From: Eledone cirrhosa
Taxonomy: Eukaryota
NCBI GenBank assembly: GCA_964016885.1
Contig: OZ024741.1
Span: forward strand, 214,892,001 to 214,956,000
Reading direction: 5' to 3'
DNA: 64,000 nt
Shown: in pieces, positions 7,791-61,616 of the stretch
Numbering within the stretch: the stretch's first letter is position 1
Layout of the letters: every line of letters starts with the position of its first letter
The notes under the pieces: generated by a model
Database searches by the model: none
The model's input: only the letters and a program-made list of their open reading frames with translations
What the model was told of the DNA's origin: nothing
Position numbers and translations under genes: made by a program

Positions 7791-7869
7791 TCATATATAT
7801 AAATATATATATATGTATTTATATATATATATATATGTGTGTATATATGTATATATATATATCTATATA

Positions 7870-9894: not shown

Positions 9895-9989
<95 letters not shown>

Positions 9990-10539
9990 ATATATAAGAA
10001 CAAAAGATGGTTAAAAGAGTTCCATGTATTTTATTATGTGCATTTCAAAAACAAATATCATCATGCAATAATATTTGTGTTTTCATCAGATAAAACAGGA
10101 AGACATGATATGAAGGTTAAAAAACACTTGTGGATAGTGCAGTTTTAAATCAACATATGAAAAGTAGTTTTAGATTGATGTGTGATATTGGGAAAAAATA
10201 TTTTATTTTGAGGGTGGGGGGTGGAAAGGATGAAAAAGAGGAGGAGATGAGAGTAAAAAGTGGAGAGGGAGGAGTATAATGAGGAAGGATGAGATAGGAG
10301 GAGAGATGGGTGATAGAGAGAGAGAGATAGCTTTTATAACTGAGAGAAATATATTGTTTTACATAGAGAGGTTGAAAACCGTTGGAAGATAATGTATAAA
10401 TTAAAAGAATTTGAAAATTAACGAAGAGAAAAAAATAATGTAAAGTTAAGGTTTGTATATTGAAGGGTTTAATAATATGTGCGATGAAAAGAAAATGTTA
10501 ATATGTATTAAGAATAATATTTAAGGGTTTAATAATAGG

Positions 10540-10998
10540 TCACTCGTTAATAATCTCTCTAATCGCAATTGCAATTGCCCTGTTAAAAATAAATGTCCTC
10601 TCAACAACCATTGTCTTGATAAAAACTTAATTTACGAATGTAAAGTTATAACTGACACCAATTCCTTCACCTATTTTGGCTCCACTTCCACCTCCTTTAA
10701 AGCTCGTCTTTATAACCATCATTCGTCTTTTAAATACAAACTTAAAAGAACCAACACGGCTCTCTCAGAACTCATATGGTCCTTGAAAGACAAAAATATT
10801 AAATATAGCATCTTTTGGAAGAAGCTTTCTTCTGCGTCTTCATACTTGAACAGTTCTCTATCCAAGATTTGCAATCTCTGTCTAAATGAAAAATTTACCA
10901 TTATATCTAATTTAGACTCTATAATAAATAGACGCACTGACTTGTTTTCTATCTGCTTGCATAAATTCCACAAAACATTCCACAAAGTATACAGCTAA
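10540..10998 (+). pseudogene. PLE GIY-YIG endonuclease C-terminal fragment (open frame, no start)
   Basis: CNCPVKNKCPLNNHCL..LIYECKV..TYFGST..FKARLYNH..ALSELIWSLK..CNLCLNEK..INRRTDL..CLH. Confidence 0.85.
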
Positions 10999-11950
10999 TA
11001 TCCAAAACTTTATCAAATTAGAATATTTTTCTCAAAGGCACATATATATATATATACTTCTTTAAAAATATACCCATCTTTCTACCTTATTTCAAAGTTA
11101 TTTATTATACATTATATAATACTTGTTACTCATTCTATATCACTCCTATTTATCACTTCCCTTTCTTCTCTTTTTCTTTTAATGTCTAACCCCTAATCTG
11201 TACCTTTTCTCACTGTTGCCTAACATAGAAACAATTATTACATAATACAATACATTCTTACTCTATATCACCTTGTAAAAATCCTTCGTAAACATAAACA
11301 TTTTTGACGTTAGATTATTCATCCTCAATTCATTATTTTTTTCTCCCTTTCATCTAACTTACTCATGCTCATCTCACAATATATCCTTATTTACATTACT
11401 TGTTGCTCTTTTTAATAATACATATCAACATTTTCTTACCATCGCACATATTATTAAACCCTTAAATATTATTCTTAATACATATTAACTTTTTCTTTCC
11501 ATCGCACATATTATTAAACCCTTAAATATTATTCTTAATACATATTAACATTTTCTTTTCATCGCACATATTATTAAACCCTTCAATATACAAACCTTAA
11601 CTTTACATTATTTTTTTCTCTTCGTTAATTTTCAAATTCTTTTAATTTATACATTATCTTCCAACGGTTTTCAACCTCTCTATGTAAAACAATATATTTC
11701 TCTCAGTTATAAAAGCTATCTCTCTCTCTCTATCACCCATCTCTCCTCCTATCTCATCCTTCCTCATTATACTCCTCCCTCTCCACTTTTTACTCTCATC
11801 TCCTCCTCTTTTTCATCCTTTCCAGCCCCCACCCTCAAAATAAAATATTTTTTCCCAATATCACACATCAATCTAAAACTACTTTTCATATGTTGATTTA
11901 AAACTGCACTATCCACAAGTGTTTTTTAACCTTCATATCATGTCTTCCTG

Positions 11951-12017
11951 TTTTATCTGATGAAAACACAAATATTATTGCATGATGATATTTGTTTTTG
12001 AAATGCGCATAATAAAA
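11951..12017 (+). ncRNA. Type I hammerhead ribozyme (inverted copy at 10029-10095, minus)
   Basis: TTTTAT-CTGATGA-long stem II-GAAA-TGCGCA-TA-ATAAAA; canonical core, palindromic stem III ATGCGCAT. Confidence 0.85.
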
Positions 12018-12490
12018 TACATGGAACTCTTTTAACCATCTTTTGTTCTTATATATTATGTATACTCCAGTCCTACAAACTGTAGAGTGCTTCTTATCCG
12101 ATATCTGCATTGCTTTATTGTACTACAATAAAACTCACCTCCTACATTATATATATATATATATATATTTGGTTATGTCAATATTTATAAAACAGACTTT
12201 GTATTTCATCTAATGAGAGCGTACCAAAGTTCAGGTACCCTTGAAATATATATAATAGAATAAATATGGTTTTATAAATATAGTTTCCACTTATTTAATA
12301 TCATTATATATATATTTATATAGGTATATACACGTATATATATGCTAGCAGAATGGCCCGGCGTTGCTCGGGATTTGCTCTGGGGTTCTTATATAGTTGA
12401 TATATATTTATCCTTATCGAGCCTCGTGAAATAAATACGTTTGTTTATATTTTGTTATTGCGTATGCAAAAATATCTGTACACGAAAATA

Positions 12491-12532
<42 letters not shown>

Positions 12533-12660
12533 GGTATCCACAGTAAGTTGTGGGGTCTATTCTGCATGAAGAACTCGATGTAATCACTATGTTGAAAATG
12601 TTGTAGGTTAAGATAAATCACGGAAAACAATAAAACATTAAAAGGAAAACAGAGCCATGA

Positions 12661-13040
12661 TATAAGTTAAAACAATGAAATAAAAACTCATGTCATTAGA
12701 GATATACTTCACTGTTTTACGATCGTTTCTAGGTGATGATAATACATTGTAGCTATACTCCGTTATTGATATATGTAATGTTAGTGACAAAATATCAGAT
12801 AAAGAGAATATTAACGTACATGCATATGACCCGCTGTTTTCAAAACCAATTTGCATTTGAAAACAGCTGGTGATATGCATGTAAGTAAATATTCTCTTTA
12901 TCTGATATTTTGTAACTAACCTTACATAGATCAATAACGGAGTATAGCTACAATGTATTATCATCACCTAGAAACGATCGTAAAACAGTGAGGTATATCT
13001 CTAATGACTTCATTTTTTATTTCATTGTTTTAAATTATAT
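12661..13040. repeat. About 380-bp near-perfect palindrome (fold-back element) between (AT)n tracts
   Basis: Arms are reverse-complementary about centre ~12852 and carry the HHR 3' half GAAA-CGATCG-TA; related fragment at about 9790-9885. Confidence 0.85.
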
Positions 13041-13784: not shown

Positions 13785-13856
<72 letters not shown>

Positions 13857-14356
13857 ATACTTTGGGAGGGTCATGTTGCCAATAAGAAACACACGCACCA
13901 GTTGCTTTCACTTCAATTTAATTTAATATATATTTATAAATTTACAAATTTATAAATTTCTGGTTGGTTGGTTGGTTCCACAACCAGATAGTTGTTTATA
14001 TATATATAGTCATAGTTCTTTCGTCACACACTCTGTGACCTCTTCAGTGACTGGGGATTTCTTTCTTCGTTTCTGTGCCTTTCCTTTCTTCTATCCTACG
14101 CCATTTTGTTTGTGTGTGGGTTGCGTGCTCAGTTTGCGCATGCGCCACATCCGGGTGTCTGTGTGTGTTTGTGTTCATTTTTCTATTTTTATATTTTTAT
14201 ATTTATATTTGTTTGTTTATTTATTTATTTATTGTTGGTTGGTTGTTTGTTCTATGTGTGTGTGTGTTTTCATTTTGTCTTGTGTGTGTTTTCATTTTGT
14301 GTGTGTTTTCAATTGTAAGTTGTTTATATATGTGTGTGTGTGTTTTCATTTTGTCC

Positions 14357-17300
14357 TTAATTGTAAGTTGTGATGTTGCTGTTCCACTCATATTTTCTAT
14401 TTAATTTTGGTTTTAATTCTTTTATGCTTACTGCCTCTGTAATTTGCCTAAACATTGCGTCTTTCTTGTGTGTGGATTCTATTTTTATTTCTATGCTCTC
14501 TAATTTACCCCTGTGTTCTATCTTAGCATGTTGGTAGAGCACAGATGATTCTTTACTATCTTGGAGGTCTCGCCAGTGTTCATTTATTCGTTCCCCTATA
14601 CTACGAGCTGTCTCACCTATGTACACTATATTTTTGTTTCTACATTGTCCCTCAGTACATCTTATGCTATATACTACATTTCTAGTTTTACAGTTAATAT
14701 GGGGGCTTATTTTACAGGTTATACATTTCTTATCTATACATGAGGGTCTTTGGAACGGGTATGTCTTGCTAATAAGTGTTTTTACGGAGGTACCAGGTCT
14801 TTCTACTATCTTAATATTGAGATTATGTTTCTTTAGGGCCCTTCTAAATTTGTAGGCTAGTTCACCTCTAGGGGTTGTATTGATGAACATTACACTCTGG
14901 TATTTATTGCTATCATACCATGAGTTTATTCTATTGGCCTTGTTCTTAGTTCTTTCTATTCTATTCCAAAATTTGCTCCTATACAAGGGGCAGGTCCCAT
15001 TTATGTCATTATTTACCATTTTTTCCCATTTGGTTCTGGCTCCTTTATACACTCTGATTCTATCTCTCTGATTGTAGCCAGAGAACTGCATACGGTGGAT
15101 GAAGTGTTGTATGTGTCTCTCTAGTTCTTCGGGGTTGCACATGCGGGACACATTTCTCATCACCCGTATCAAATCCGCAATCAGTATGTTGATTTTGGTA
15201 TGGTCCGAAATGGCCGAGTTTCGGTGGATCAGATGTTTGGAAGTCATGGGTTTGGCATAATGGGAATGGAGGATTTGTTTTTGGTTGTTAATAGTATCTA
15301 ACCAGAGCTCTGTGTCTAGTACAGGTAATCGATGGTTGGGGTGTCTACTTGGGTAGTCTATAGTAACTCTAATGCTCTGGTGGATGGAGTTTGCTATTTG
15401 CTGGATGCTTTCCATTGTGTTTTTCTCAGGTTCCTGACTGTTCTTTAGTGGGGGTGTCTTAACTACGATGTTTATATCATCTACGTAGCGGGAGTACATT
15501 ATCAGGGTTAATCTGTCTTCTAATTGTTCTTTAAGTTTTTGTTTAAGTCTACTGTCCCACCATACCATGAACAAGTTAGCTATGTCGCCTGCAATGCTAA
15601 CACCAATGGCTGCTCCTTCCTCTTGGGCATATGTTTTACCATTAAATTTGAACATATGTTCCTTAAGGGTTAATTTTATGCTGGCCCCTACCGCATGTGC
15701 AATCATTTTCTTCAGTTCATCGTGGTTTTCGGGTGTCCGTATGGCTCTGGTCCACCCGTTCCATCTATCTGTGTGGGTTTTCTTGGCCATTGAGGTAATG
15801 GTAGGTGGTCTGCCTCTTGCTGGTCTTGTAGGGCACAGGTTGCTAAGGTCATAAGTGTCTAGGTAACTATTACTATGGGTAAGCTTAAGTAGAAGTCCCA
15901 GCTCACTGGTATCAATCCCACGGAACTCAACCTTGCTCTCGCTGATCATTTCGACGCATTTCTCCACAGCAAAATCCACGTCAATAGATGGATACAGGGA
16001 CACAACATCCATACTGCCTATTATGCAGTTTGTTAGGTCCCCAGATCGGTTACCCGCGTCGATTCTGCTGAGGAGGTCCTCCGTGCTGTCACACACATCT
16101 GGGGACATCTCAATGATGGGGCGTATGATCAGGGAGAGGAAGTAGGACAGTCTGTAGTTACTAGCAATGTTAGCCCCACAGACTGGCCGTGTTGGTGGTC
16201 CCGCGACAGGGTCCCAGCCCGTTTTATGGTCTTTTCGAAGCCCATACAACGCCGGCACGTCATTGTTCCAGACCTGGAAGTTGTTGGCAGTCCTTTTGTT
16301 GGGCTGCATTATATTTGTCCACATCACCATATGGGCATTGAGGGTTTTTTCTCTGTCCTCATGCTCCTGTGGTGTTACCTCTCTTGTGTTAGTGATGTGG
16401 GGTTGCATTGCCTGGATGTAGTTTGGCAGGCTGTCAACCGACATTCTGCCAGACTTGTCTGTTGGAAAGCATGCTATCTCTCCATTACGCGAGCGCTGCA
16501 TGAGCTTACGCAAGCCATTTGCAGATTCTTCTCCCAGTTGCTGGGCCTCTATTCTATTATGCTTCTTGCTATACTGTTCTATAATATTTCTAAGTTCGGA
16601 TTTAGCTATACTAAATTGTGCTTCTGTTTGTTCATCGACCTGCGACGGCAACTGCGTGCGTTTGTTAAATGGCAAAGTCGTGGCGTGGACTCGTCGTAGG
16701 TCGAATGATTTATCGGAGTGGTTATAAAACGGAGAGTTCCAGGCTGCTGCTTTATGTGTACTTGCGCTATTGTTAGTTGTGTTGTTTCTATTTCCACCAA
16801 CAGCAGCAGCCTCAGCTTCATGGTTGTTTCTATGTCTCTCATAATTACTCCTGTCTCTTTCCACTGGCTCAATGTTGTTATCTACCCTATTTTGTGTGTC
16901 TGTGTGTTCGTCTTGGTTATTCTCTTTGTCCTTAGTCTCCCTACTCCTTTTAATCCTATTACTTTCTCTTATTTCTCTGATTTCTGTGCTACTGTCATTA
17001 CTTGTTTTCTGTGTCTGTGTGTTTGTTAAGATTGTAGTGGTGGTGAGAGGCATTGAATGTGTGTGTGTTGTTGTTGTTGATGTGTGTTGTTGTTGATGTG
17101 TGTTGTTGTCTCCGTGTGTGTGTGTGTTATCGTTGTTGTGTGTGTTGTTATTGTTGTTTGTGTTTGCGTGTCTGTTGTTGTTGTATCTGGGTATGTTGCT
17201 GTTGTTGTTGTTGTTGATGTGTGTGTTGTTGTTATTGTTGTCTCCGTGTGTGTTGTTATTGTTGTTTGTGTCTGCGTGTCTGTTGTATCTGGGTATGTTG

Positions 17301-17573
17301 CTATTGTTGGTATTGTATCTGGGTATGTTGCTATTGTTGTTGTTATTGTTTGTGTCTGTGTGTCTGTTGTTGTTGGGATGTGTGTTGTATATGTGTGTGC
17401 GTATATTGTTGCTTTTGTTTTTGTTTTTGATGCTCCAGCGTAGTTTCGTAAATGATTTTTCTATTTCTGACAGACAACTAATCATATTTACCTTCTTGAA
17501 TGTCGCAAATTTGGGTGGCAAACGTAACACAGACATTTCATTATTATCTATTTTCGTGTTTCCATAAATGTTG
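14357..17573 (-). pseudogene. 5'-truncated inverted copy of the PLE RT/GIY-YIG ORF
   Basis: Identical to the 19182-22398 protein except NFQV versus NFQA. Confidence 0.95.
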
Positions 17574-18104
17574 TTCATCAATACAACCCCTAGAGGTGAA
17601 CTAGCCTACAAATTTAGAAGGGCCCTAAAGAAACATAATTTCAATATTAAGATAGTAGAAAGACCTGGTACCTCCGTAAAAACACTTATTAGCAAGACAT
17701 ACCCGTTCCAAAGACCCTCATGTATAGATAAGAAATGTATAACCTGTAAAATAAGCCCCCATATTAACTGTAAAACTAGAAATGTAGTATATAGCATAAG
17801 ATGTACTGAGGGACAATGTAGAAACAAAAATATAGTGTACATAGGTGAGACAGCTCGTAGTATAGGGGAACGAATAAATGAACACTGGCGAGACCTCCAA
17901 GATAGTAAAGAATCATCTGTGCTCTACCAACATGCTAAGATAGAACACAGGGGTAAATTAGAGAGCATAGAAATAAAAATAGAATCCACACACAAGAAAG
18001 ACGCAATGTTTAGGCAAATTACAGAGGCAGTAAGCATAAAAGAATTAAAACCAAAATTAAATAGAAAATATGAGTGGAACAGCAACATCACAACTTACAA
18101 TTAA
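17572..18104 (+). pseudogene. GIY-YIG C-terminal duplicate inside the upstream pseudo-LTR
   Basis: Same as the C-terminus of the main ORF except KHNF versus KHNL. Confidence 0.95.
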
Positions 18105-18306
18105 GGACAAAATGAAAACACACACACACATATATAAACAACTTACAATTGAAAACACACACAAAATGAAAACACACACAAGACAAAATGAAAACACACA
18201 CACACATAGAACAAACAACCAACCAACAATAAATAAATAAATAAACAAACAAATATAAATATAAAAATATAAAAATAGAAAAATGAACACAAACACACAC
18301 AGACAC

Positions 18307-18362
18307 CCGGATGTGGCGCATGCGCAAACTGAGCACGCAACCCACACACAAACAAAATGGCG
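18307..18362 (+). promoter_or_regulatory. Candidate pseudo-LTR promoter (ETS-like CCGGATGT, NRF1-like GCGCATGCGC, YY1-like AAAATGGCG)
   Basis: GC-rich island in an otherwise A/C-rich UTR, just upstream of the HHR and ATG; function inferred. Confidence 0.45.
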
Positions 18363-18416
18363 TAGGATAGAAGAAAGGAAAGGCACAGAAACGAAGAAAC
18401 GAAGAAAGAAATCCCC

Positions 18417-18461
18417 AGTCACTGAAGAGGTCACAGAGTGTGTGACGAAAGAACTATGACT
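18417..18461 (+). ncRNA. Minimal type I hammerhead ribozyme in the pseudo-LTR (copies at 22711-22755 plus and 14008-14052 minus)
   Basis: AGTCA-CTGAAGA-g-GTCACA/TGTGAC-GAAA-GAAC-TA-TGACT. Confidence 0.8.
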
Positions 18462-18594
18462 ATATATATATAAACAACTATCTGGTTGTGGAACCAACCA
18501 ACCAACCAGAAATTTATAAATTTGTAAATTTATAAATATATATTAAATTAAATTGAAGTGAAAGCAACTGGTGCGTGTGTTTCTTATTGGCAAC

Positions 18595-21500
18595 ATGACC
18601 CTCCCAAAGTATAACAATATCGGTTTCAACACACGATTTCAGATAAAGAATCTTGCTAAACAAATTCAGAAACGAAATATCGTAAGCCTTAGCCAGGCTA
18701 ACAAGATACTGAAAACCACCATGTTCTGTTGTCTACGAAAAACCATAACATCTCGACAACTACACTTCATAAAACTGTGCACCACTTCTAGAATCTACAC
18801 CAACACCATCAATACCGACGTTAGAAGATTACAACTCACCAAAAAACAAGCAGATAGGCTAAAATGAACTTTAATTCTAAACATAAAAAAGAAGATCTAT
18901 AGAGAATTAAGTCATCAAGAAAAACTAAAGCGTAACCTAATAGATGAAATATCTAAAATCACCACACCAGCAGAAAAACTAACATTTATAAGCCTTATAC
19001 GCCCCGAAGAACAGTACATTACTCAAGAATGTAATAAGCACTTTAACAGAAAATTAAAGTGGCTTAAACAGGCAAAGCTAAATCGGGATACTATAGAGTA
19101 TACCAATAGATATCCCGACAAAATTGACGGTATCAACATGGCCGACACCTCATTATCTGAAGAGTTCAACAATAAAAATACCAACATTTATGGAAACACG
19201 AAAATAGATAATAATGAAATGTCTGTGTTACGTTTGCCACCCAAATTTGCGACATTCAAGAAGGTAAATATGATTAGTTGTCTGTCAGAAATAGAAAAAT
19301 CATTTACGAAACTACGCTGGAGCATCAAAAACAAAAACAAAAGCAACAATATACGCACACACATATACAACACACATCCCAACAACAACAGACACACAGA
19401 CACAAACAATAACAACAACAATAGCAACATACCCAGATACAATACCAACAATAGCAACATACCCAGATACAACAGACACGCAGACACAAACAACAATAAC
19501 AACACACACGGAGACAACAATAACAACAACACACACATCAACAACAACAACAACAGCAACATACCCAGATACAACAACAACAGACACGCAAACACAAACA
19601 ACAATAACAACACACACAACAACGATAACACACACACACACGGAGACAACAACACACATCAACAACAACACACATCAACAACAACAACACACACACATTC
19701 AATGCCTCTCACCACCACTACAATCTTAACAAACACACAGACACAGAAAACAAGTAATGACAGTAGCACAGAAATCAGAGAAATAAGAGAAAGTAATAGG
19801 ATTAAAAGGAGTAGGGAGACTAAGGACAAAGAGAATAACCAAGACGAACACACAGACACACAAAATAGGGTAGATAACAACATTGAGCCAGTGGAAAGAG
19901 ACAGGAGTAATTATGAGAGACATAGAAACAACCATGAAGCTGAGGCTGCTGCTGTTGGTGGAAATAGAAACAACACAACTAACAATAGCGCAAGTACACA
20001 TAAAGCAGCAGCCTGGAACTCTCCGTTTTATAACCACTCCGATAAATCATTCGACCTACGACGAGTCCACGCCACGACTTTGCCATTTAACAAACGCACG
20101 CAGTTGCCGTCGCAGGTCGATGAACAAACAGAAGCACAATTTAGTATAGCTAAATCCGAACTTAGAAATATTATAGAACAGTATAGCAAGAAGCATAATA
20201 GAATAGAGGCCCAGCAACTGGGAGAAGAATCTGCAAATGGCTTGCGTAAGCTCATGCAGCGCTCGCGTAATGGAGAGATAGCATGCTTTCCAACAGACAA
20301 GTCTGGCAGAATGTCGGTTGACAGCCTGCCAAACTACATCCAGGCAATGCAACCCCACATCACTAACACAAGAGAGGTAACACCACAGGAGCATGAGGAC
20401 AGAGAAAAAACCCTCAATGCCCATATGGTGATGTGGACAAATATAATGCAGCCCAACAAAAGGACTGCCAACAACTTCCAGGCCTGGAACAATGACGTGC
20501 CGGCGTTGTATGGGCTTCGAAAAGACCATAAAACGGGCTGGGACCCTGTCGCGGGACCACCAACACGGCCAGTCTGTGGGGCTAACATTGCTAGTAACTA
20601 CAGACTGTCCTACTTCCTCTCCCTGATCATACGCCCCATCATTGAGATGTCCCCAGATGTGTGTGACAGCACGGAGGACCTCCTCAGCAGAATCGACGCG
20701 GGTAACCGATCTGGGGACCTAACAAACTGCATAATAGGCAGTATGGATGTTGTGTCCCTGTATCCATCTATTGACGTGGATTTTGCTGTGGAGAAATGCG
20801 TCGAAATGATCAGCGAGAGCAAGGTTGAGTTCCGTGGGATTGATACCAGTGAGCTGGGACTTCTACTTAAGCTTACCCATAGTAATAGTTACCTAGACAC
20901 TTATGACCTTAGCAACCTGTGCCCTACAAGACCAGCAAGAGGCAGACCACCTACCATTACCTCAATGGCCAAGAAAACCCACACAGATAGATGGAACGGG
21001 TGGACCAGAGCCATACGGACACCCGAAAACCACGATGAACTGAAGAAAATGATTGCACATGCGGTAGGGGCCAGCATAAAATTAACCCTTAAGGAACATA
21101 TGTTCAAATTTAATGGTAAAACATATGCCCAAGAGGAAGGAGCAGCCATTGGTGTTAGCATTGCAGGCGACATAGCTAACTTGTTCATGGTATGGTGGGA
21201 CAGTAGACTTAAACAAAAACTTAAAGAACAATTAGAAGACAGATTAACCCTGATAATGTACTCCCGCTACGTAGATGATATAAACATCGTAGTTAAGACA
21301 CCCCCACTAAAGAACAGTCAGGAACCTGAGAAAAACACAATGGAAAGCATCCAGCAAATAGCAAACTCCATCCACCAGAGCATTAGAGTTACTATAGACT
21401 ACCCAAGTAGACACCCCAACCATCGATTACCTGTACTAGACACAGAGCTCTGGTTAGATACTATTAACAACCAAAAACAAATCCTCCATTCCCATTATGC

Positions 21501-22398
21501 CAAACCCATGACTTCCAAACATCTGATCCACCGAAACTCGGCCATTTCGGACCATACCAAAATCAACATACTGATTGCGGATTTGATACGGGTGATGAGA
21601 AATGTGTCCCGCATGTGCAACCCCGAAGAACTAGAGAGACACATACAACACTTCATCCACCGTATGCAGTTCTCTGGCTACAATCAGAGAGATAGAATCA
21701 GAGTGTATAAAGGAGCCAGAACCAAATGGGAAAAAATGGTAAATAATGACATAAATGGGACCTGCCCCTTGTATAGGAGCAAATTTTGGAATAGAATAGA
21801 AAGAACTAAGAACAAGGCCAATAGAATAAACTCATGGTATGATAGCAATAAATACCAGAGTGTAATGTTCATCAATACAACCCCTAGAGGTGAACTAGCC
21901 TACAAATTTAGAAGGGCCCTAAAGAAACATAATCTCAATATTAAGATAGTAGAAAGACCTGGTACCTCCGTAAAAACACTTATTAGCAAGACATACCCGT
22001 TCCAAAGACCCTCATGTATAGATAAGAAATGTATAACCTGTAAAATAAGCCCCCATATTAACTGTAAAACTAGAAATGTAGTATATAGCATAAGATGTAC
22101 TGAGGGACAATGTAGAAACAAAAATATAGTGTACATAGGTGAGACAGCTCGTAGTATAGGGGAACGAATAAATGAACACTGGCGAGACCTCCAAGATAGT
22201 AAAGAATCATCTGTGCTCTACCAACATGCTAAGATAGAACACAGGGGTAAATTAGAGAGCATAGAAATAAAAATAGAATCCACACACAAGAAAGACGCAA
22301 TGTTTAGGCAAATTACAGAGGCAGTAAGCATAAAAGAATTAAAACCAAAATTAAATAGAAAATATGAGTGGAACAGCAACATCACAACTTACAATTAA
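18595..22398 (+). CDS. PLE polyprotein (reverse transcriptase + Cys linker + GIY-YIG endonuclease); one in-frame TGA at 18865-18867
   Basis: PTDKSG, LYGLRKDHK, RPV, SMDVVSLYPSI, GAAIG, RYVDD, NVVYSIRC..YIGETARS..ERINEH. ORF 18571-18867, segment 18868-19137 and ORF 19138-22398 share one frame with no other stop. Confidence 0.93.
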
Positions 22399-22968
22399 GG
22401 ACAAAATGAAAACACACACACACATATATAAACAACTTACAATTGAAAACACACACAAAATGAAAACACACACAAGACAAAATGAAAACACACACACACA
22501 TAGAACAAACAACCAACCAACAATAAATAAATAAATAAACAAACAAATATAAATATAAAAATATAAAAATAGAAAAATGAACACAAACACACACAGACAC
22601 CCGGATGTGGCGCATGCGCAAACTGAGCACGCAACCCACACACAAACAAAATGGCGTAGGATAGAAGAAAGGAAAGGCACAGAAACGAAGAAACGAAGAA
22701 AGAAATCCCCAGTCACTGAAGAGGTCACAGAGTGTGTGACGAAAGAACTATGACTATATATATATAAACAACTATCTGGTTGTGGAACCAACCAACCAAC
22801 CAGAAATTTATAAATTTGTAAATTTATAAATATATATTAAATTAAATTGAAGTGAAAGCAACTGGTGCGTGTGTTTCTTATTGGCAACATGACCCTCCCA
22901 AAGTATAACAATATCGGTTTCAACACACGATTTCAGATAAAGAATCTTGCTAAACAAATTCAGAAACG

Positions 22969-23010
<42 letters not shown>

Positions 23011-28879: not shown

Positions 28880-31615
28880 CATCTACGTCCTAGTCAGGAT
28901 GCGTGACAGACAGGATGTGCAGTGTGTTCGTGCTCTTCGTGAAGCTGAGTGATGGACGGACCACCGCCTGGTACACGCAAAAGTGAAACTAATCACTAAA
29001 CGTAAAATCCGGGCTCCTGGTGTTGCCCTGCCCAGAAGATTGAATGCTGCTCGTCTTAAGGATAAAAATATGAAGAGGGCATTGCAAGAAGAGATCCAGG
29101 TTGCAGCTCTTGGTGAGGATTGGCCGACCCTTAAAAAGTCGGTTTATGATGTAGGCAGGCGTGTTCTGGGATTGGTGCAGAGAAAACATCACGATAGGTT
29201 TAATGAGAATGATGAACATATAGAAGACTTGTTGGCTGATAAGAGGCGTGCTCTGTCACGCTACTTGACGGCAAAACCACAGGAGAAGAATACGTTGCAT
29301 AAGGAACTCAAGGATGTGAAATCACGTGTTAGGCGGAGTCTTTCTCAGTGGTTGAGTGAGAAGGCTGATGAGATACAAACTGCGTCAGATTCCAATAACA
29401 CAAAGCTGCTGTACAGTATCTTGCGTGAAGTTTATGGACCGTCTTCTTCTCTGGTGACACCGCTTCGCAGCAAGGATGGCAAAGAACTTCTCCGTGACTC
29501 ACAAGAATTTCTACGAAGGTGGCGAGAGAACTTTGATGATCTTTTGAATCAGCCGTCTGTCGTCAATGAAGATTTCCTCAATCTCATTCCAGAAAGTCCT
29601 GTGAAAGTAGCTCTCGCAGCACTTCCGACGCTTGTGGAGGTTGCAGTGGCTCTCTCGAAGCTGAACAGTGGAAAGTCTCAAGGTATGGATGGCATACATG
29701 CTGAGCTCCTACAATATGGTGGTGAGAGACTCCTGCAACATCTTCACTCTTTGTTTGGCAGAATATGGGCTAATGAATCCGTACATGAGGAGTGGAGAGA
29801 TGCAGTAATGGTCGTCTTGTACAAGGGAAAGGGTAACAGGAATGATTGTGGGAACTACAGAGGTATATCATTACTTTCTGTCGTAGGGAAATATTTATGT
29901 AGGGTGCTTCTGGACCGTATGCTGACACACATTGCAGATTGTGTTCTTCCTGAAAGTCAATCTGGTTTTCGTGCTGGACGCGGCACTACTGATATGATCT
30001 TCTCAGCTAGACAGCTCCAGTAGAAGTGCATGGAACAAGGCTTGGATCTATATCAGGTTTTTGTCGATCTGACAAAAGCTTTCGATACTGTCAACAGAAA
30101 TGCATTATGGAAAGTTCTCCAGAAACCTGGTTGCCCTGATAAGTTCCTTGCTTTAGTTAGGTCTTTCCGTGACGACATGAAGGCTTTGGTTAATGTCGGA
30201 GGTAACATGTCGGAGCCTATCTCAGTAAAAAATGGAGTAAAACAGGGGGATATTCCAGCACCGACCCTGTTTACCATATACTTTGCAATGGTTTTCTGTA
30301 TTGCATTCAAGAATTAGGGGCATGGTGTTTACATCCGATATCGAACATCAGGCAGCATATTTAACATCAGGCGCTTTGCTGCAAAGACAAAAGTATTTAC
30401 ATCAATCATAAGAGACCTCTTGTATGCAGATGATTGCGATCTTGTAGCGCACACACAGAGTGATATGCAGCACATTTTGAATGCATTTTCTGATGCTTGC
30501 TCTGCCCTAGGATTGACTGTCAGTCTCAAGAAAACCCTCGTCATGTACCAACCTGCCCCTGGTGAGCAGTACAGTGAACCAAATATCTATGTGTATGGTA
30601 AACGCGTTCGAGTGGATGATCAGTGTATCTACCCGGGAAGCACTGTCAATCGATACAGCAACCTTGATAGTGAAATCTCACTTAGGATTAGGAAAGCAAG
30701 TGATGCTTTCGGAAAGCTAGACAGGCGACTCTGGGGTCGGCGAGACATATGCAGGAGGACAAAGGTAAAGGTGTACAGGGCATGTGTGCTCTCTTCTCTT
30801 CTTTATGCCTGCGAGACCTGGGTCACATATGGATACCAGCTTAAGCAATTGGAGCGTTTCCATCAGATGTGTCTCAGACGGATCCATGGCGTTCACTGGA
30901 GGGACCACATCAGTGATGTCGAGACGTTGGAAAGCTCTATGTGTGACAGTATAGAAGCTCTTGTGATTAAGCAACGACTCCGTTGGAGTGGTGACCTTGC
31001 CAGGACGAAGGATTCTAGAATACCAAAACAACTCTTTTATGGAGAGTTAGTTAAAGGAAAACGACCGCCACATGAACCAAAAAAGAGGTATAAGGATTCC
31101 TTGAAAGCCTCTTTGAAAGACGCTAACATCTCTGCTGATACATGGGAAAATATTGCTGCTGATCGTAATAAATGGAGAAAGACTGTATATGAGGGGAAAG
31201 TTGTCTTTGAGGCATCTCGAATCGCATACGAGAAAGTAAAGTGGGATGTGTGGAAGGGCATTGCTGTTGCACTTCCAGACGGCGAGGGTTCTCCTATGGT
31301 GCTGATATGCAGCGTCTGTACGAGACTCTGCCTAAGCAAAGCTGGACTCGAAAGTCATCTTCGCAGTCATAAAGTAAGACCAGTGGTTGACTACCAGGCT
31401 GCTGTTGGAGATGCTACTCATCATGCTTGCCAAACATGTGGTAGAGAATGTAAATCAGCAGGAGGGCTCAAACGACATGCAAAAGTACACGAACTCCAAC
31501 CACAGCCGACTATTCCCAGTGAATGTTTTGGTTGACGACTCTGTGCAAGACATTTCAGATCATTGGCTGGACTAAAAAGCCACATTCGATCGCAGCGCTG
31601 TTAGTTGCTATCGCG
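28880..31615 (+). mobile_element. 5'-truncated RTE-clade LINE: end of APE, RT, three C-terminal C2H2 fingers; in-frame stops at 30021 and 30315
   Basis: TDHRLV, NYRGISLLS, QSGFRAGRGT, VDLTKAFDTV, YADD, RLRWSG; CSVCTRLC..H..H, CQTCGREC..H..H. Confidence 0.93.
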
Positions 31616-35115: not shown

Positions 35116-35280
35116 TACTAATGTATTTTTCTAATTCATTAATATAATATGTTATAATTTCTTCATTTCTTCATCACCACTACCATCATTTTTACCATCA
35201 TCAGGATCATCATTTATCGTTACTCTCCCCGTCCCATCAAATTGCTGGCCTTGTGCCTAAATCAGAAACTATTATTATTA

Positions 35281-35397
35281 TTACGGCCATATCACGCTGA
35301 AAACATCGGTTCTCGTACGATCACCGAAGTTAAGCAACGTCGAGCCTAGTTAGTACTTAGATGGGTGACCGCTTGGGAAACCTATATGCTGTAAGCA
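35281..35397 (+). rRNA. 5S rRNA copy (probable pseudogene)
   Basis: TTACGGCCATATCACGCTGAAAAC..TCTCGT.CGATCACCGAAGTTAAGC..GTTAGTACTT.GATGGGTGACCGCTTGGGAA..GCTGTAAGCA; first two bases missing, several substitutions, solitary. Confidence 0.88.
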
Positions 35398-35404
35398 TTT
35401 CCTT

Positions 35405-36770
35405 TAAAAGAGTGGTGGATTGGCAGTATCGGGAGATGGTCGGGCGCCATACTTTGCAGCAAATAGTTACGGCCCTTTACGATCTGAGTTCAAATCTCGC
35501 CGAGGTTAACGTTGCCTTTCATCTTTATGGGGTCGATAAAATAAAGTACCAGTAATGTACTGGTTAATTGCTGGCTTTGGGTAGATTTAATCGACTTTCC
35601 CCTCCCCCTAAATTACTGGCTTTGTGCCTATATAAGAAACCACGTATAGAGTTACGGCCCTTGCCATTCTAAGTTCAAATCCCGCCGAGGTTAACTTTGT
35701 CTTTCAACCTTACGGGGTCGATAAAATAAAGTACCAGTAATGCACTAGGTAATTGATGGCCTTGTGCCAAGAGTAGAAACAATTATTATTATTGTTTGTT
35801 ATTAGGGCGGTGGATTGGCAATATCGGTAGAGTTTCGGACACCATGCTTTGAAGCATAGAGTTACATCCCTTTATGATCTGAGTTCAAATTCCGCCGAGG
35901 TTAACTTTGCCTTTCATCCTTGCGGGGTCGATAAAATAAAGTACCAGTAATGTACTGTGTAATTGTGCCAAAAGTAGAAACAATTATTATTGTTATTATT
36001 AGCTTTGCTTTTGATACTTACGAGGTCGGTAAATAAAGTACCAGTTATGTACTGGGGTAAATTTAATCGACTTTCTCACCCCTCAAATTGCTGGCCTTGT
36101 GCCTAAATCTGAAACTATTATTATCATTATTATAAGGGCGGTGGACTTGCAGTATCGGTAGAACGTCGAACAACATGCATTGCGGCATAGAGTTGTGGCC
36201 TTATACCTTCTGAGTTCAAATCCCGCTGAGGTTAGATTTTTTTCTTTCATTCTTTCGGGGTCGATAAAATAAGTACCAGTAATGCACTTTCCCCTCGACT
36301 TTCCCCTCACCATCAAATTGCTGGCCTTTTGCCTAAAGTAGAACCAAGTATCATCAATATTATTATGGGTTAATTGGCACAATCGGTAGAGCATCCGACA
36401 AAATGCTTTGCGGCATATAGTTACGGCCCTTTACGGTCTGAGTTCAAACCCCGCTGAGGTTAGCTTTGCTTCTCATTCTTTCAAAGGTCGATGAAATAAA
36501 GTACCAGTAATGAACTGGAGTCATTTAATTGGCTTTCCCTTCCTCTCAAGTCATTGGCCTTTTGCCGAAATCAAAAACCTTTATCATTGGCGGTATCGGA
36601 CGCCATGCTTTGACGCATAGAGTTACGGCCCTTGTCATTTTGACTTCAAATCCTGCCGAGGTTAACTTTGCCTTTCATCCTTACGGCGTCGATAGAATAA
36701 AGTACCAGTAATGTACTGTTATAATTGCTGGCCTTGTGCCAAAAGTAGAAACAATTATTATTATTGTTAT
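35405..36770 (+). mobile_element. Head-to-tail cluster of about 7 family-2 SINE copies and fragments
   Basis: Repeated GAGTTCAAATCCCGCCGAGGTTAACTTTGCCTTTCATCC units with (ATT)n tails, all in the same orientation. Confidence 0.9.
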
Positions 36771-37474: not shown

Positions 37475-37477
<3 letters not shown>

Positions 37478-38152
37478 GAATGTATATATAGTGTATTTTG
37501 CAATACACTGTATGCTTAATTAAAAGCATTTCGAAGACCTTATGCTATTGTTTTAGAGTAGTGACAGACTCACTTATTTAATTTTCAGCAAGCAGGGGGA
37601 GATAAAGCTGACAAGGCCTTGTTTCGCATTTATTGATGCTTATAAGAGCCAAATACTCCTCCTGTTTGCTGAAATCATGGATGTTTGGTTCTTATAGAAT
37701 TCTTATAGAATTCTACTCTAAAACAATAGCATAAGGTCTTCGAAATTCTTTTAATTAAGCATACAGTGTATTGCAAAATACACTGTATATACATTCATAT
37801 ATATTTAGCTATTTCAGAGCACCAATTCTAATTTTCAATTTCTGCTTGACCGGCAACCGCTCTGTATAATCAGTTCCTGATTATTTACTAGAATCCTATA
37901 AGAACCAAACATCCATGATTTCATCAAACAGGAGTAGTAGTTGGCTTTGATAAGCATTAATAAATGCGAAACAGGGCCTTGTCAGCTTTATCTCCCCCTG
38001 TTTGCTGAAAATTAAAGTAAGTGAGACTGTCACTACTCTAAAACAATAGCATAAGTTCTTCGAAATGCTTTTAATTAAGCATACAGTGTATTGCAAAATA
38101 CACTATATATACATTCATATATATTTAGCTATTTCAGAGCACCAATTCTAAT
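37475..38152 (+). mobile_element. About 320-bp retrozyme-like repeat: inverted arm (37475-37710) + partial tandem (37714-38152); HHRs at 37943-37987 (+) and 37606-37650 (-)
   Basis: TACTCTAAAACAATAGC at 37714 and 38034; GGCT-TTGATAA-GCATT/AATGC-GAAA-CAGGGCCTTG-TC-AGCT. Confidence 0.82.
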
Positions 38153-38289: not shown

Positions 38290-38291
<2 letters not shown>

Positions 38292-38545
38292 TAAGTTATT
38301 CCGGGTTGAATCGGAGCTAACCACAGTAAGTAAGGTACTCAATACATAGCAGAGTATAAAAGTTTTAATATAGATGAGATTCTACAGGACTATAACTGTT
38401 TCATTCTTTAGGAATCATCAGGAGATGGTATATATACATATATATATATATACATGTTAGTGCAGTCTCAGTTACACATTTTCCTGATGATTTCTAAAGA
38501 ATGAAACAGTTCTAGTCCTGTAGAATCTCATCTATATTAAAATAT
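38290..38545. mobile_element. Fold-back element with HHR motifs (38380-38424 minus, 38481-38525 plus); relative at 40358-40500
   Basis: TTC-CTGATGA-short stem II-GAAA-CAG..CTG-TA-GAA; flanked by (AT)n. Confidence 0.7.
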
Positions 38546-39652: not shown

Positions 39653-39708
<56 letters not shown>

Positions 39709-39714
<6 letters not shown>

Positions 39715-40296
39715 CGTAGTTAAGAAAGCCACAACAATGCAGAGGGGAATCTCGAGGTAGGAAGTGAATGATAGATAGGAGAAACAGGTGAAAGTGAAAA
39801 TTGAGAGAGTCAAAGATGAAAACAAAACAAAGGTAGAAGGGTTACCGTAGTGGAGATTTAATCCCAATATTTCGGGCTCACGCCCATCAACGGGGGAAAA
39901 GTTCCAAAAGGGGGGGAACAGGCCAAGCGGAGAAAGTTGTGATGTCGTTAAGACAGGAATGCCGTTATGAATGTCGTTAAGACAGGAATGCCGTTAACGG
40001 CATTCCTGTCTTAACGACATCACAACTTTCTCCGCTTGGCCTGTTCCCCCCCTTTTGGAACTTTTCCCCCGTTGATGGGCGTGAGCCCGAAATATTGGGA
40101 TTAAATCTCCACTACGGTAACCCTTCTACCTTTGTTTTGTTTTCATCTTTGTCTCTCTCAATTTTCACTTTCACCTGTTTCTCCTATCTATCATTCACTT
40201 CCTACCTCGAGATTCCCCTCTGCATTGTTGTGGCTTTCTTAACTACGTATTTTACACATTTCACAATGCTTCAAGCAAACTTTAACACCCTCTTAT

Positions 40297-40361: not shown

Positions 40362-40625
40362 TTATCCTGGGTTCAATCGGGGGTAACCATTGTAAGTAAG
40401 GTGCTCAATACATAAAAGAGTATAAATATTTAATATGGAAATGGCTTCTACAGGACTGGAACTGTTTCATTGGAGAGAAATCACCGGGAAGCCCATAAGA
40501 TATACGTGTATATACACACACATACACACATACGCACACACACAAGCATACATAAATATATACATGCTTACATAAGTACACACACATACATATATATATA
40601 TACATCTCTCTCTATACACACACAC

Positions 40626-41415: not shown

Positions 41416-41610
41416 TGATTACACAACAGTTAGTTCACCATACGGAGAACAATTGTTTCACCTTAGAGGATCCTCAGCTCGGATCCGCTAAGGTGAAACA
41501 ATTGTTCTCAGTATGGTGAACTAACTGCTGTGTAACCACTTCTACCTAACTCGTCCCATGGACTGAGTGCTCTACCACTACGGATATTACTTTCCAGTGT
41601 TCCACCACTA
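41413..41610. mobile_element. Small fold-back element with HHR (41445-41480, minus); relative at 60995-61175
   Basis: GAG-CTGAGGA-tCCT cta AGGt-GAAA-CAATTG-TT-CTC. Confidence 0.7.
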
Positions 41611-41794
41611 TATATATATATATATTTGAAGAATAATGACTTCACTTGTAGTGTTAAAATATTTTATTTAATTTTATAATATTATAAAATTAAATCAAAG
41701 TTTTAACACTACAAGTGAAATCATTCTTTTCCCTTTTTTCAAATACTGTACCAAGGATCTCACAAATTTTCGAATATATATATATATATATATA

Positions 41795-42419
<625 letters not shown>

Positions 42420-45974: not shown

Positions 45975-46007
45975 AAAGAATAGAGGTGTAACACACAAGT
46001 TATTATA

Positions 46008-46478
46008 TATTGGTAAACGGAATAGAAAATGCTGACAAATTGTTCACAGTTGAAAAATGGTTTAATTAGGAATAAAAGAGTATTAGTGATTGTATGGGTT
46101 AGTATTCAGTTGTGGTTTTAAGTTTTTAAGTTTTTACCGGTTGCGCATTTCTAAATGCTTTTCAAAAATAATTTTGAGATAGAGTGTCCGTGTTGTTTGC
46201 TCTGATCCGTGTTGTTTGCTCTGATCTAAATGCTTTTCAAAAATAATTTTGAGATAGAGTGTCCGTGTTGTTTGTTCTGATCAGAGCAAACAACACGGAC
46301 GCTCTATCTCAAAATTATTTTTGAAAAGCATTTAGAAATGCGCAACCGGTAAAAACTTAAAAACTTAAAACCACAACTGAATACTAACCCATACAATCAC
46401 TAATGCTCTTTTATTCCTAATTAAACCATTTTTCAACTGTGAACAATTTGTCAGCATTTTCTATTCCGTTTACCAATA
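46008..46478. repeat. About 470-bp fold-back element with internal tandem duplication
   Basis: Inversion point CTGATCAG at ~46280; 46151-46206 is duplicated at 46226-46282. Confidence 0.85.
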
Positions 46479-46651
46479 AATATATATATATATGTATATA
46501 TATATATGCGTGTGTGTGTGAGTATAAGATAAATAAATACATATATATATATATATATAACGAAGGAAGTGTGGTAAGGAACCAGATGGACCATATATTG
46601 AGTAAAATGACAGGAGGCTGGACTGGTGAGATTCCTTCAAAGATTTATTAC

Positions 46652-48986: not shown

Positions 48987-51601
48987 GTGTGGCTAAAAGA
49001 AATCCGAAAGAACTATTGCTCCTACACTACAACAAAAACATACGAAATAAGTGAGGTTACCCTTGAGACTGTGGTAGGAAAACACCAGGAAGAGACATGA
49101 TTGTCGGCTACTGGTACAAAAAACTGATATTCTATCGGAGGTATCTTACTGACCTCTACCAACAAGTTCTTAAGGGAGATACACTTATACCAGAATGGTT
49201 GACATTAGCACAAACATTACTGGTCCCCAAGAACAAAGACACCCACTTTTCAAAAAACTACCGACACATTGCATGCCAGAACCTGATGTATAAGATGTAT
49301 ACAGCCTGCCTGAACCTATTCTTCCAAGATCACTGTGAAAATAATAACATCATCACAGATGAACAAGCAGCTGGATAGAAAGTGGTTTGGGGATGTGCTG
49401 AACAACTCCTAATCAACAAAACTGCGATGTCGGAGGTGCAAAAACTTAGGAGGAATATAACTACAGTATGGCTGGACTACAGGAAAGCTTTCGATTCTGT
49501 TCCCCCACTCTTGGATGATAGAGGCCCTCCAACTTGCTAAAGTCCCAGACATTATTGTCAGAACCATAGAGAAGCTGTCTTCTTCTTGGGCTACTATCCT
49601 AAGGTAAAAGACAGAGAGGGAGGACTCAATTTTCACTGACAAAATAAAATATCGCAGGGGTATATTTCAGAGAGACAGTCTCTTTGTGATATTATTCATC
49701 CTGTCATTAAACCCCTTGTCCTTACTGCTCAAGAAATGTGAAGGATATATCATTGGCTCACAGGAGGACATAAATGCGAACGTAACTCATAATTTATTTG
49801 TGGATGATCTGAAACTCTATACCAAGATCATGGATGTGATCAAGAAAAATGTTGACCTGGTTACAACGTTTTCAAAGAATATAGGAATGTAGTTTGGCCA
49901 AGATAAATGCTCATATATGACTGTAAAGCGGGGAAAAACAACAACCCAATCGAGCAACATTGTCATCAATGGCCTAACTGTTTCACCGATATCTGATGAG
50001 GACTGCTACAGATACCTGGGGATAGATGAGAATATATCCTATAATGGTATCTGTAATAAGGAACGCGTAACCAGGGAATACTACACCCGATTAAGAAAGA
50101 TTTGGTCTTCGGAACTCTCTGCGCAAAACAAAACAGTGGCTCACAATGTGTTTGCTGTGCCTGTCCTAACACCAGCGTTTGGAATACTCAATTGGACGAT
50201 AGACGAAATCCGAGCAGTTGATGTTGGAACTCGAAAAATACTAAACAACACCAGAAACTTCCACATCAACAGTGACATAGACCGCCTTTACTTGAAAATA
50301 AGCAGAGAGGCAGAGGCCTAACATCAGTCCAAGCAGCATTTGAATGTCGCATCATATCCCTCCGACATCTACGAACCACGAAGTGTAGGATCCCGTCTCT
50401 CGAGCAAGTCTATCTGCATGAAACAGATAAGATCATGAGCGTTGGGAAGGAACTCCTCCAGAGATATTCCCTGTGTGATAATCAAAAACTCACACCCAGG
50501 GAAGTCGCTCAGCAGTATCACAGTGAATCCATGGATGAAAAACTGCATGCTTGTCAGCAAAAAATCATGCATGGATATGTTGCCAGGAAGCTCCAGAGTG
50601 AGATTAATATAGATAAGGAAAGTAGTATATCTTGGACCAACAACCGCTATATTGTCTCCCACTTCGAAGGATACGCTTTTGCAATCCAAGAACAGGAGAT
50701 TAACACGAAATACCTGATTCACAAAAGAGATAGGGATGCAGGCAAAACACCTAGATGTGATAACAAGTGCAGACTCTGCAGAACTAACATCGAGGATATC
50801 ACCCATGTCATCAGCAGCTGTCCAAAGATCACATCGCGGTACTATCTACATATGAGGCACGATGTAGTGGCCAAAACACTGTACGATGCAGTCCGTAAAA
50901 TAGTTAGCCCCGATAATATACACATTAAAAGGTACAGCAATGTGGAAGACATCCACGTACATAATATGAAAGAGTACTGGTGGAATGTTCAAGTAAAAAC
51001 CCCAATAAAATGCAGGCATAACAGACCTGATATTATGATATGGGACAGGGAGAAGAAGGCATGCACAGCAGTGGAAATTAGCTGCCCAGCAGATGACAAT
51101 ATAATATCAAAGATTAGCGAAAAGGAGAATATTTATCCAGAACTGATGAGAAATCTGCAGATACTCCACCCTGATTACATCTTCAGATTTATGCCTGTGA
51201 TTATTGGGGCACTGGGGTATGTTAGTAACTGCCTCAATACAAATCTTGAGAAGCTAGGCTTCACAGGAACAGAAAGAACACAACTAGTTAGGAAATTACA
51301 AGTACAATCCTTTAATGGAACAGTAAAAATATGTAAAACATTCCAAAAAGTTTGCATCTAATAACTGCATATATACATGTACAGATACAAAGCATATACA
51401 CATGCACACATACAACTCAAAACATCCACATCCACACATACAATAACATCCACATCTACACATGCATGCATGCATGCAGACATACATATCTACCTAGTTG
51501 ATGTTGTGTAAATTCCAATGAGAGAGAGTTTTGTGTCTATGTTAGAAACCGATTCTCTGTCTATTGGGAAAAGAATTTGTGAAATTATAAAACCAGAAGA
51601 A
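48987..51601 (+). mobile_element. 5'-truncated, decayed R4/Dong-clade non-LTR retrotransposon (RT, CCHC, restriction-like endonuclease)
   Basis: NYRHIAC, WLDYRKAFDSV, LFVDDLKLY, CRLC..EDITHVISSC, RHD, RPDI..VEISCP..K..Y; flanked by (CATA)n on both sides. Confidence 0.92.
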
Positions 51602-53190: not shown

Positions 53191-53720
53191 TAACTCATGT
53201 CTAAAGAATTAATCAGATATTAAAATATATACTATTTCTTCTTCTAATCAGCATAATTAACCATATACATAATCAAATCTAGCAAGCTTTAAGAATAAAT
53301 TTTCTAACGGGGAAATCTCCGACAAATAACTGATCGCAGCTAGTTCGCGTTAACTCCGTTCACCATTTATCAAACATTTCGGCAGCATGCAGAATCTGAT
53401 CAAATACACCGTCAACCGCACGTAATTAGTAGTAAAATTAAACTTAGAAGAAATGCGCACATACCGTAATTATATCTCTACCATGGTTTCTTCCTAGTTT
53501 AGGACATCCAAATAATATGGATATGCTTTTTTGAGTCAGGAATCTTCAGGAGACAAACTCAGAAATAGACATTTAATTTCTCAGACAGACCGCGCCAAAT
53601 TTAGATTCAAAAATGGCTAAGATCGCTATGTAGCTGTGTACCAGCCAGAGAGAAAGCGTGTGATTGGTCGCTTACGGCGGGTAGGCATGCTGCTAGAAAG
53701 CGCAGCCATATACCGCCAAA
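53190..53720 (-). mobile_element. Diverged copy of the 670-bp family; HHR at 53473-53555
   Basis: TGTCTC-CTGAAGA-TTCCTG...TAGGAA-GAAA-CCATGG-TA-GAGATA; collinear with 23120-23643. Confidence 0.78.
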
Positions 53721-60960: not shown

Positions 60961-61177
60961 CATGATAGTGAGTAAAATATATATATATATATAATAGTAG
61001 AACTCTGGTGGGTTATAACCGTAGCAGTCCATGGGACGAGTTTGGTAGAAGTAGTTCTACAACAGTTAGTTCACTATACCGAGTTGAGGATCTGAATAAG
61101 GTGAAACATTTAAGTAAACGTTAAGTGGACATATCCAAGAATAAAAGCACTCAGTCCATAGGACGAGTTTAGTATTG

Positions 61178-61326
61178 ATAATTACGACAGTGACATAAAC
61201 AGGTAGTCATGTTTCGTTGGGTCCTGGGCTCCAATTCGTTCAGTCTGTCATGACAGACAGACTGAACGTGTTGGAGCCCAGAACCCAGCGAAACTTGAGT
61301 ACCTGTTTATGCCACTGTGCTAATAA
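61178..61326. mobile_element. Small fold-back element with a degenerate HHR-like motif (61257-61306)
   Basis: ACAGa-CTGAACG-tGTTGG..CCAGC-GAAA-CTTGAG-TA-cCTGT. Confidence 0.5.
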
Positions 61327-61354
61327 TTTATATATATATGTATATATATAAAAT

Positions 61355-61616
61355 TAAATTGGTGCTCTGAAATAGCGATATATATATGAATGTATATACA
61401 GTGTATTTTGCAATACACTGTATGCTTAATTAAAAGCATTTTGAAGACTTTACGCTATTGTTTTAAAGTAGCGACAGTGTCACTTACTTCAATTTTCAGC
61501 AAACAAGGGGGGATAAGCTGACAGAGCTCTGTTTCGTTCTTGTTGGTACTTATCAAAGCTCACTACTCCTCCTGTTTACTGAAAATTATGAATGTTGGAT
61601 TCTGATTTGCTGAAAA
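61355..61616 (-). mobile_element. Third copy of the 320-bp retrozyme-like family; HHR at 61514-61562
   Basis: TGAGCT-TTGATAA-stem II-GAAA-CAGAGCTCTG-TC-AGCTTA. Confidence 0.8.

Follow-up and report, generated by a model that had tools for sequence, protein, structure and literature searches.

A ~320-bp retrozyme-like repeat family with the anatomy of a non-autonomous Penelope-like element in Eledone cirrhosa

Three loci of a non-coding repeat and their insertion anatomy

The window analysed here, a 64,000-nucleotide stretch of Eledone cirrhosa DNA, contains three loci of a ~320-bp repeat without an open reading frame (ORF), referred to as A, B and C, and BLASTN of each against the window recovered only these three. 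Their coordinates and motifs agree with those of the initial annotation, as does the description of A and B as a complete monomer plus a partial repeat (periods of 320 and 318 bp) and an inverted arm. The sense strand is the forward one in locus A and the reverse one in B and C. Locus A comprises a 5'-truncated inverted arm without a tail (37475..37703, reverse strand), whose hammerhead is broken (core CUUAUAA, 37640-37646); a partial upstream unit (37713..37832, forward), which corresponds to the 3' 120 bp of the monomer, lacks a hammerhead and is 97.5% identical to 38033-38152; and a full ORF-less unit of 320 bp with a GC content of 34% (37833..38152, forward). Within the full unit lie a type I hammerhead domain (37918..38011, forward), with the core UUGAUAA at 37947-37953 (U3-A8) and C17 at 37983, and a tail of the type found in Penelope-like elements (PLEs) (38120..38152, forward), 28-33 nt long depending on where its TA-blurred boundary is drawn and followed by a TA-rich flank. 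Locus B has a full unit of 318 bp (41794..42111, reverse), with the core CUGAGGA at 41991-41997 (C3-G8) and C17 at 41962, a partial upstream unit (42112..42168, reverse) with 94.8% identity to 41794-41851, and an inverted arm (42168..42289, forward) that has neither hammerhead nor tail and ends in (TA)n. Locus C is a single 5'-truncated unit (61353..61606, reverse), with the core UUGAUAA at 61550-61556, a perfect helix III palindrome and C17 at 61520. The loci thus hold 1.38, 1.18 and 0.79 units, respectively, each with one sense-strand hammerhead. Read as circles, the units have a GC content of 34-35% and longest stop-free frames of 31-68 aa.

All three loci share the same 3' end, 169 nt downstream of the GUC cleavage site. 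Both inverted arms (A and B) lack the tail, ending at an internal TA-run 28-33 nt short of this point. TA-rich sequence flanks the loci. Both kinds of end appear in the raw reads of sequencing run X12, where loose ends lie at 61358 (459 reads) and 61378 (542 reads, with an (AT)n consensus). Read ends at 61424-61431 were rejected as biological ends; they are loose ends of low agreement that fall on TTAA sites and are probable RAD-enzyme artefacts, as probably is the pile of read ends at 61491. The family is present in high copy, with 2674 contigs of run X1 and 4221 reads of run X12 on a 271-bp stretch, and it also occurs with its head-to-tail junction in runs X4 and X6 from two other organisms (18 and 9 contigs). 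Since this junction is found in A and B and, as loose ends, in X4 and X6, the unit is truly ~320 nt long; the junction also speaks against the monomers being pieces of a longer coding element, an outcome that the initial annotation had considered. Pattern scans for the family found no loci in viral contigs, metagenome contigs or prokaryote genomes; the sole match to a degenerate hammerhead pattern, metagenome locus L001, was rejected, having neither helix II nor palindrome and resembling coding DNA.

The signature described for PLE insertion consists of a partial tandem, an inverted copy truncated at its 5' end, a tail of 30-40 bp and a microsatellite target (PMC8557442), with the tail described as the distance separating two internal reverse transcription (RT) start sites (PMC11167929). 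The family displays a pseudo-LTR partial tandem with an adjacent inverted copy in A and B, a tail at one end and TA-rich flanks. The same layout of partial tandem, inverted arm, tail and (TA)n is seen, as had been noted, in a young autonomous PLE of ~9 kb in the window (13853..22970, forward), which encodes a 1176-aa stop-free frame (18868-22398), lacking in our loci. This element, outside the family, has arms that are 99.65% identical, a 60-nt tail and (TA)n flanks, and it carries minimal hammerheads with a CUGAAGA core and one extra G at 22716, 18422 and 14047 (reverse strand). The best named protein relative of its ORF is from Octopus vulgaris (70%), a single hit that points to a cephalopod host, and the CxxxxCxxC linker read from the ORF resembles that of Neptune/Nematis; no Pfam family was detected in the ORF. 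The 9-kb PLE is much younger than loci A-C, and any similarity between its sequence and the unit was undetectable by BLASTN and local alignment. The distance from cut site to 3' end is 220 nt in this PLE versus 169 nt in the unit.

This element also bears on whether the three loci could simply be pseudo-LTR fragments, the 5'-truncated 3' ends of a PLE that is autonomous and carries an ORF. Their architecture is identical to that of autonomous PLEs, and the U3-A8 hammerheads described in Schistosoma are mostly single truncated PLE motifs (PMC4209133). However, the sequence directly after the tail in A and B is the 5' end of the unit itself, with a period of 318-320 bp and no ORF, and the same junction recurs in X4 and X6, whereas the tail of the 9-kb PLE continues into the ORF region. 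This explanation is largely refuted, and we consider it very improbable.

The proposal that the repeat is mobilised by a PLE stands as far as the insertion architecture is concerned, but without a sequence link to the 9-kb PLE. When the unit was aligned locally with the PLE tail of the window and with four 3' ends that bear hammerheads, no similarity beyond TA-runs emerged. As a candidate partner, the 9-kb PLE reached an alignment score of 22, which was equalled or exceeded by 51 of 200 shuffles, and for the elements at 53549 and 60368 the better-scoring matches were TA-runs; these candidates were rejected.

Several other repeats populate the window. A PLE remnant at 9987-12059, putatively of the Hydra clade, has 554-bp inverted arms (99% identical), a GIY-YIG-like frame (10525-10998) and hammerheads at 11957 (forward) and 10089 (reverse) with a long helix II and a palindromic helix III. 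Hammerhead-like motifs with CUGAAGA cores lie in other repeats at 53549 and 60368, both on the reverse strand. A relaxed hammerhead search returned 10 motifs in the window against 0-2 per shuffle (20 shuffles), so several hammerhead families coexist within this 64 kb. Small TA-flanked elements with inverted arms occur at 38290-38530, 41416-41600, 61020-61130 and 61200-61320; by eye they hold words resembling hammerhead cores (CTGATGA near 38484) and are possibly mini-PLE families. Two segments recur, 38296-38423 at 40362-40489 and 41507-41565 at 61025-61083. A 5S rRNA match at 35279-35397 (91 bits, above the gathering score) adjoins a cluster of a dispersed repeat family (35400-36770); it may represent either a pseudogene or a repeat headed by 5S. 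At 39703-40259, 46004-46482 and 12660-13040 lie inverted repeats that are nearly perfect, 190-265 bp long and separated by spacers of 1-71 bp; if transcribed, they would give long double-stranded RNA. Fragments of LINE-type reverse transcriptases lie at 7803-9061, 28953-31535 and 50276-51361, one of them with a PHD finger; the Pfam search detected RVT_1 and PHD in 7803-8441 and a weak RVT_1 in 28953-30023.

Conservation of the hammerhead fold and the 3-8 pair

The consensus NUGANNA...GAAA...UH with helices I-III is present at all three loci, and the cores reported previously (TTGATAA at 37947 and 61550, CTGAGGA at 41991) were recovered. A strict type I hammerhead descriptor, composed after the three motifs were known, matched exactly three sites in the window, at 37947 (forward), 41997 (reverse) and 61556 (reverse), and gave 4 matches in 200 block-shuffled windows. 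Neither the hammerheads of this family nor the other hammerhead motifs of the window appear among the best 150 of the 164 Rfam matches (E<=1). The ribozyme is of canonical size. Helix I and its 19-bp distal extension, separated by an internal loop, are followed by the core, helix II (4-5 bp with a 5-6-nt loop), GAAA, helix III and GUC. Helix III is a 12-nt palindrome or near-palindrome with a GUC site at all loci, as had been reported, although the perfect palindrome ACAAGGCCTTGT sits in the inverted arm of locus A; the sense copy of A reads ACAGGGCCTTGT, which carries a G·U change, and locus B reads ACAGAGATCTGT.

The ribozyme is the least conserved part of the unit, since A and B are 68% identical in the hammerhead domain and 86% and 87% identical in the flanking parts; PLE hammerheads in general are described as highly variable in sequence (PMC4209133). 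In an alignment of the four copies that bear a core (A, the arm of A, B and C), 91.6% of 131 cells are nevertheless paired, and 8 of 33 pairs show changes on both sides: two in the distal stem, one at the 3-8 pair, three in helix II and two in helix III. These figures lie above all 500 shuffles (0/500), and slid controls give 0-1 such pairs, with the caveat that the count draws on four related sequences from three loci and that the structure was drawn from these same sequences, which inflates both controls. The double changes are thus supportive of conservation of the fold, and we do not claim them as statistical proof. Circular folds are also more stable than shuffles (z of -3.4 for unit A and -7.4 for unit B), as are those of the reverse strands (-3.7 and -4.4).

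The paired changes suggest long-term selection on the type I hammerhead fold, as the initial annotation proposed. If the hammerhead were instead a fossil, the family would spread without cleavage and the paired changes would derive from an older lineage or from turnover. Every locus shows some damage consistent with this. In locus B the 1.1-2.1 pair, beside the cut site, is a U·U mismatch and the palindrome is broken; locus C has a helix II mismatch at 61538; the arm of A has a damaged core, and the sense copy of A has the G·U change in helix III; moreover, the contrast at the 3-8 pair is a single event. Against this, the paired changes separate subfamilies in four elements of the fold (distal helix I, the 3-8 pair, helix II and helix III), and at the one site open to a check, 61538, the lesion is confined to a single copy, ~100% of the records aligned there showing the other letter. 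A fossil ribozyme appears improbable.

Regarding the core itself, position 3 and position 8 form a Watson-Crick pair in three of the four copies, U-A in A and C and C-G in B, where C3-G8 is accompanied by G7 and by an A-U closing pair in helix II. The fourth core, in the arm of A, was overlooked in the initial annotation; its sequence, CUUAUAA (N3 at 37646), combines a C3·A8 mismatch with G5U. Between the arm and the sense copy, 12 of 235 columns differ, and we accordingly read this lesion as probable decay after insertion. The earlier claim of a compensatory U3-A8 core therefore holds for the U-A and C-G alternatives, but amounts to one contrast, and the arm of A breaks the pair. Its presentation as a striking feature was overstated, the variant having been in print since 2011 (PMC3088659) and 2014 (PMC4209133): natural U3-A8 hammerheads were described by Perreault et al. 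2011, with reference to activity observed previously in vitro (PMC3088659), and ~1,300 U3-A8 PLE hammerheads were reported from Schistosoma, first in the Cercyon PLE, by Cervera & de la Peña 2014 (PMC4209133).

When the records of four runs were aligned on locus C, none of the 40 variant sites listed, out of 139, lay in the core. All 40 reach at least 47% in some run or read direction, from which we infer, on the assumption that the listing is ranked by share, that C3 and G8 are in the minority in all four runs. Run X1 has no A>C site, so that the G7 of locus B would be found in less than 3% of the records aligned there; alignment of reads and contigs to locus C required 80% likeness, and records resembling locus B, which is 79% alike, may be under-represented. 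U3-A8, a known functional variant, is thus the probable majority core of the family and C3-G8 probably a minority lineage, represented by locus B.

A circular intermediate or an uncleaved template

Considering the insertion anatomy together with the ribozyme, we regard the family as probably a high-copy, non-autonomous, retrozyme-like retroelement that uses the reverse transcriptase and GIY-YIG endonuclease of a PLE. In the proposed life cycle, source copies with at least two units elsewhere in the genome would be transcribed, and the type I hammerhead would cut at GUC, probably aided by pairing of the palindromic helix III between units. The resulting monomers would then be ligated into a ~320-nt circle, as in other animal retrozymes. 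A PLE protein, presumably, would nick (TA)n DNA and prime RT at two fixed internal sites ~30 nt apart, ~140 and 169 nt 3' of the cut site, which would produce the tail, the inverted arm and the shared 3' end; the insertion architecture itself is directly seen at the loci. RT proceeds past the cut site and the unit junction, as the observed insertions of 0.8-1.4 units show. Insertions with one hammerhead are dead ends, as is the case for A, B and C, all of which are decaying.

The formation of a ~320-nt circle by cleavage and ligation is, on balance, the reading we favour, by a slight degree, since a ribozyme that seems to be compensatorily maintained, in copies that all cross the cut site, is most simply accounted for by cleavage followed by ligation. 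Circularisation is reported for the retrozymes of coral, mussel and axolotl (PMC7229834). None of the three loci could itself yield a circle by double cleavage because none has two same-strand hammerheads, and no array of the family with at least two same-strand hammerheads was found in the 64-kb window. In the predicted transcript of locus A, 90 of the 94 ribozyme bases are paired with the arm. In run X12, depth across 61505-61534 is ~1010, 1310 and 1290, with no fall upstream of the cut site, and none of the loose ends listed (those above the listing threshold) pile up at GUC. Such continuous reads over GUC imply a template that is either a re-ligated circle or uncleaved RNA.

The second of these templates would make the family the same non-autonomous PLE family without a circle, with RT copying uncleaved multimeric RNA and the hammerhead trimming only the 5' end of the precursor or acting late with protein help. 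PLE insertion in vitro is described as independent of hammerhead cleavage, and an anole PLE as using unprocessed RNA (PMC11167929); among Xenopus retrozyme dimers, 8 of 9 tested are reported to lack cleavage (preprint 10.64898/2026.07.22.740005). Neither the insertion at A (440 bp) nor that at B (375 bp) reaches 489 bp, the maximum length of a copy made from a once-trimmed dimer (169 + 320). However, the unit size, the GC content and the canonical-sized hammerhead with a long closing stem bring the family nearer to the circularising retrozymes (PMC7229834), and the minimal PLE hammerheads match it less well than do the coral, mussel and axolotl retrozymes. We regard the route without a circle as unlikely, while giving it some weight.

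The circular route raises the question of re-cleavage, and here folding models offer a lead rather than a result. As long as the RNA is a monomer or a circle, helix III is predicted to pair through its 5' strand with the 5' strand of helix I and with N3-U4-G5, hiding the core; where two units meet, a 12-bp palindrome duplex would free both cores. By nearest-neighbour folding, the active monomer fold lies 5-9 kcal/mol above the core-blocking fold, in a model that ignores tertiary contacts. The predicted off-helix is longest in C (8 bp), followed by A (7 bp) and B (5 bp); off-pair probabilities are 0.77-1.0 in A and C, and a random palindrome reaches an off-helix of at least 7 bp in 1.5-3% of draws. 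The pair at 2.4, G-C in A and A-U in C, looks compensatory, and a C3-G8 swap stabilises the off-fold by ~2.6 kcal/mol. The unconstrained homodimer fold is an active double hammerhead in three of five domains (A, the arm of A and C with the read-majority letters); it was not obtained for B or for unmodified C. For A, the tandem dimer at full length remains in the off state (P 0.95-0.97), with the helix III between units at 0.02-0.04, and a perfect palindrome does not change this. Random palindromes gave an energy gap at least as large in 1.2% of draws for A (n=85), 20% for its arm (n=61), 34% for B (n=79), 21% for C (n=72) and 12% for C with the majority letters (n=78), so that the gap beat these controls in only one of the five domains. 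A built-in ribozyme switch, off in the monomer and on in the dimer, is therefore put forward as a tentative and rather doubtful possibility.

Relation to known elements and significance

In its workings the family resembles an animal non-LTR retrozyme, and its anatomy is that of a non-autonomous PLE. As described in PMC7229834 and preprint 10.64898/2026.07.22.740005, animal non-LTR retrozymes likewise have a non-coding unit of 150-450 bp with a GC content below 50%, a type I hammerhead with a canonical-sized helix II, a head-to-tail junction and co-occurrence with PLEs; the preprint (Li, Clavereau & Pollet 2026) describes dispersed retrozyme monomers like those at the present loci. The family differs from them in its U3-A8 core and 12-nt palindromic helix III, where the published helix III is described as 1-2 bp with a short palindromic loop, in holding only 0.8-1.4 units at loci A-C, and in its explicit PLE tail and inverted arm; in the available text of the preprint the word 'tail' does not occur and 'inverted' occurs once, in a reference. 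The self-blocked core predicted for it contrasts with the free ribozyme described as predicted for most circles of metazoan retrozymes. Loci A-C fit the 'monomer' class of the preprint and not its 'active' class, for which two hammerheads are needed; they are not classed as active retrozymes because no locus in the window has two and because the circle is a prediction.

With PLE pseudo-LTR hammerheads, including the U3-A8 variant of the Schistosoma Cercyon PLE, the family shares, as far as these are described (PMC4209133), the U3-A8 core, a palindromic helix III and high motif variability, and these hammerheads likewise lie on opposite strands a few hundred bp apart. Unlike them, the family has a unit without an ORF and a ribozyme that is not minimal, with a 4-bp helix II, a 5-6-nt loop, no extra base after A9, a full helix III and a long distal stem. 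Non-autonomous PLEs such as Chlamys MRC1 share with the family, according to PMC8557442 and PMC11167929, the partial tandem, the inverted copy truncated at its 5' end, a tail of 30-40 bp confined to one end, insertion into microsatellites and RT that starts internally. The Chlamys elements are described there as mostly without hammerheads and as having a 3' end like that of their partner, whereas for our family no such similarity to a partner was found within the window.

The family is newly described; retrozyme-like non-autonomous PLEs and the U3-A8 core are already published. Our additions are the tail and inverted-arm signature, a ribozyme of canonical size that combines a U3-A8 core with a long palindrome, and probably a new host group. 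None of the papers listed by our literature searches described a cephalopod retrozyme; the giant squid genome paper gives 235 Rfam hammerhead-1 loci. The PLE origin or mobilisation of animal retrozymes is put forward as a hypothesis in PMC7229834 and argued in the 2026 preprint (10.64898/2026.07.22.740005). To this idea the present loci add an anatomical link, namely an ORF-less unit of retrozyme size with a fixed 3' end, a tail, an inverted arm and TA targets, which gives it structural support beyond co-occurrence. Insertion lengths provide a test from the genome alone between a circle and a trimmed multimer. The switch, if true, would answer for one family how the circles of animal retrozymes escape re-cleavage, a question left open in PMC7229834, and would reveal a retrozyme circle that PLE enzymes copy from the internal start sites of the PLE. 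The self-blocking helix, if real, would be a simple natural off-switch for ribozymes in circular RNA.
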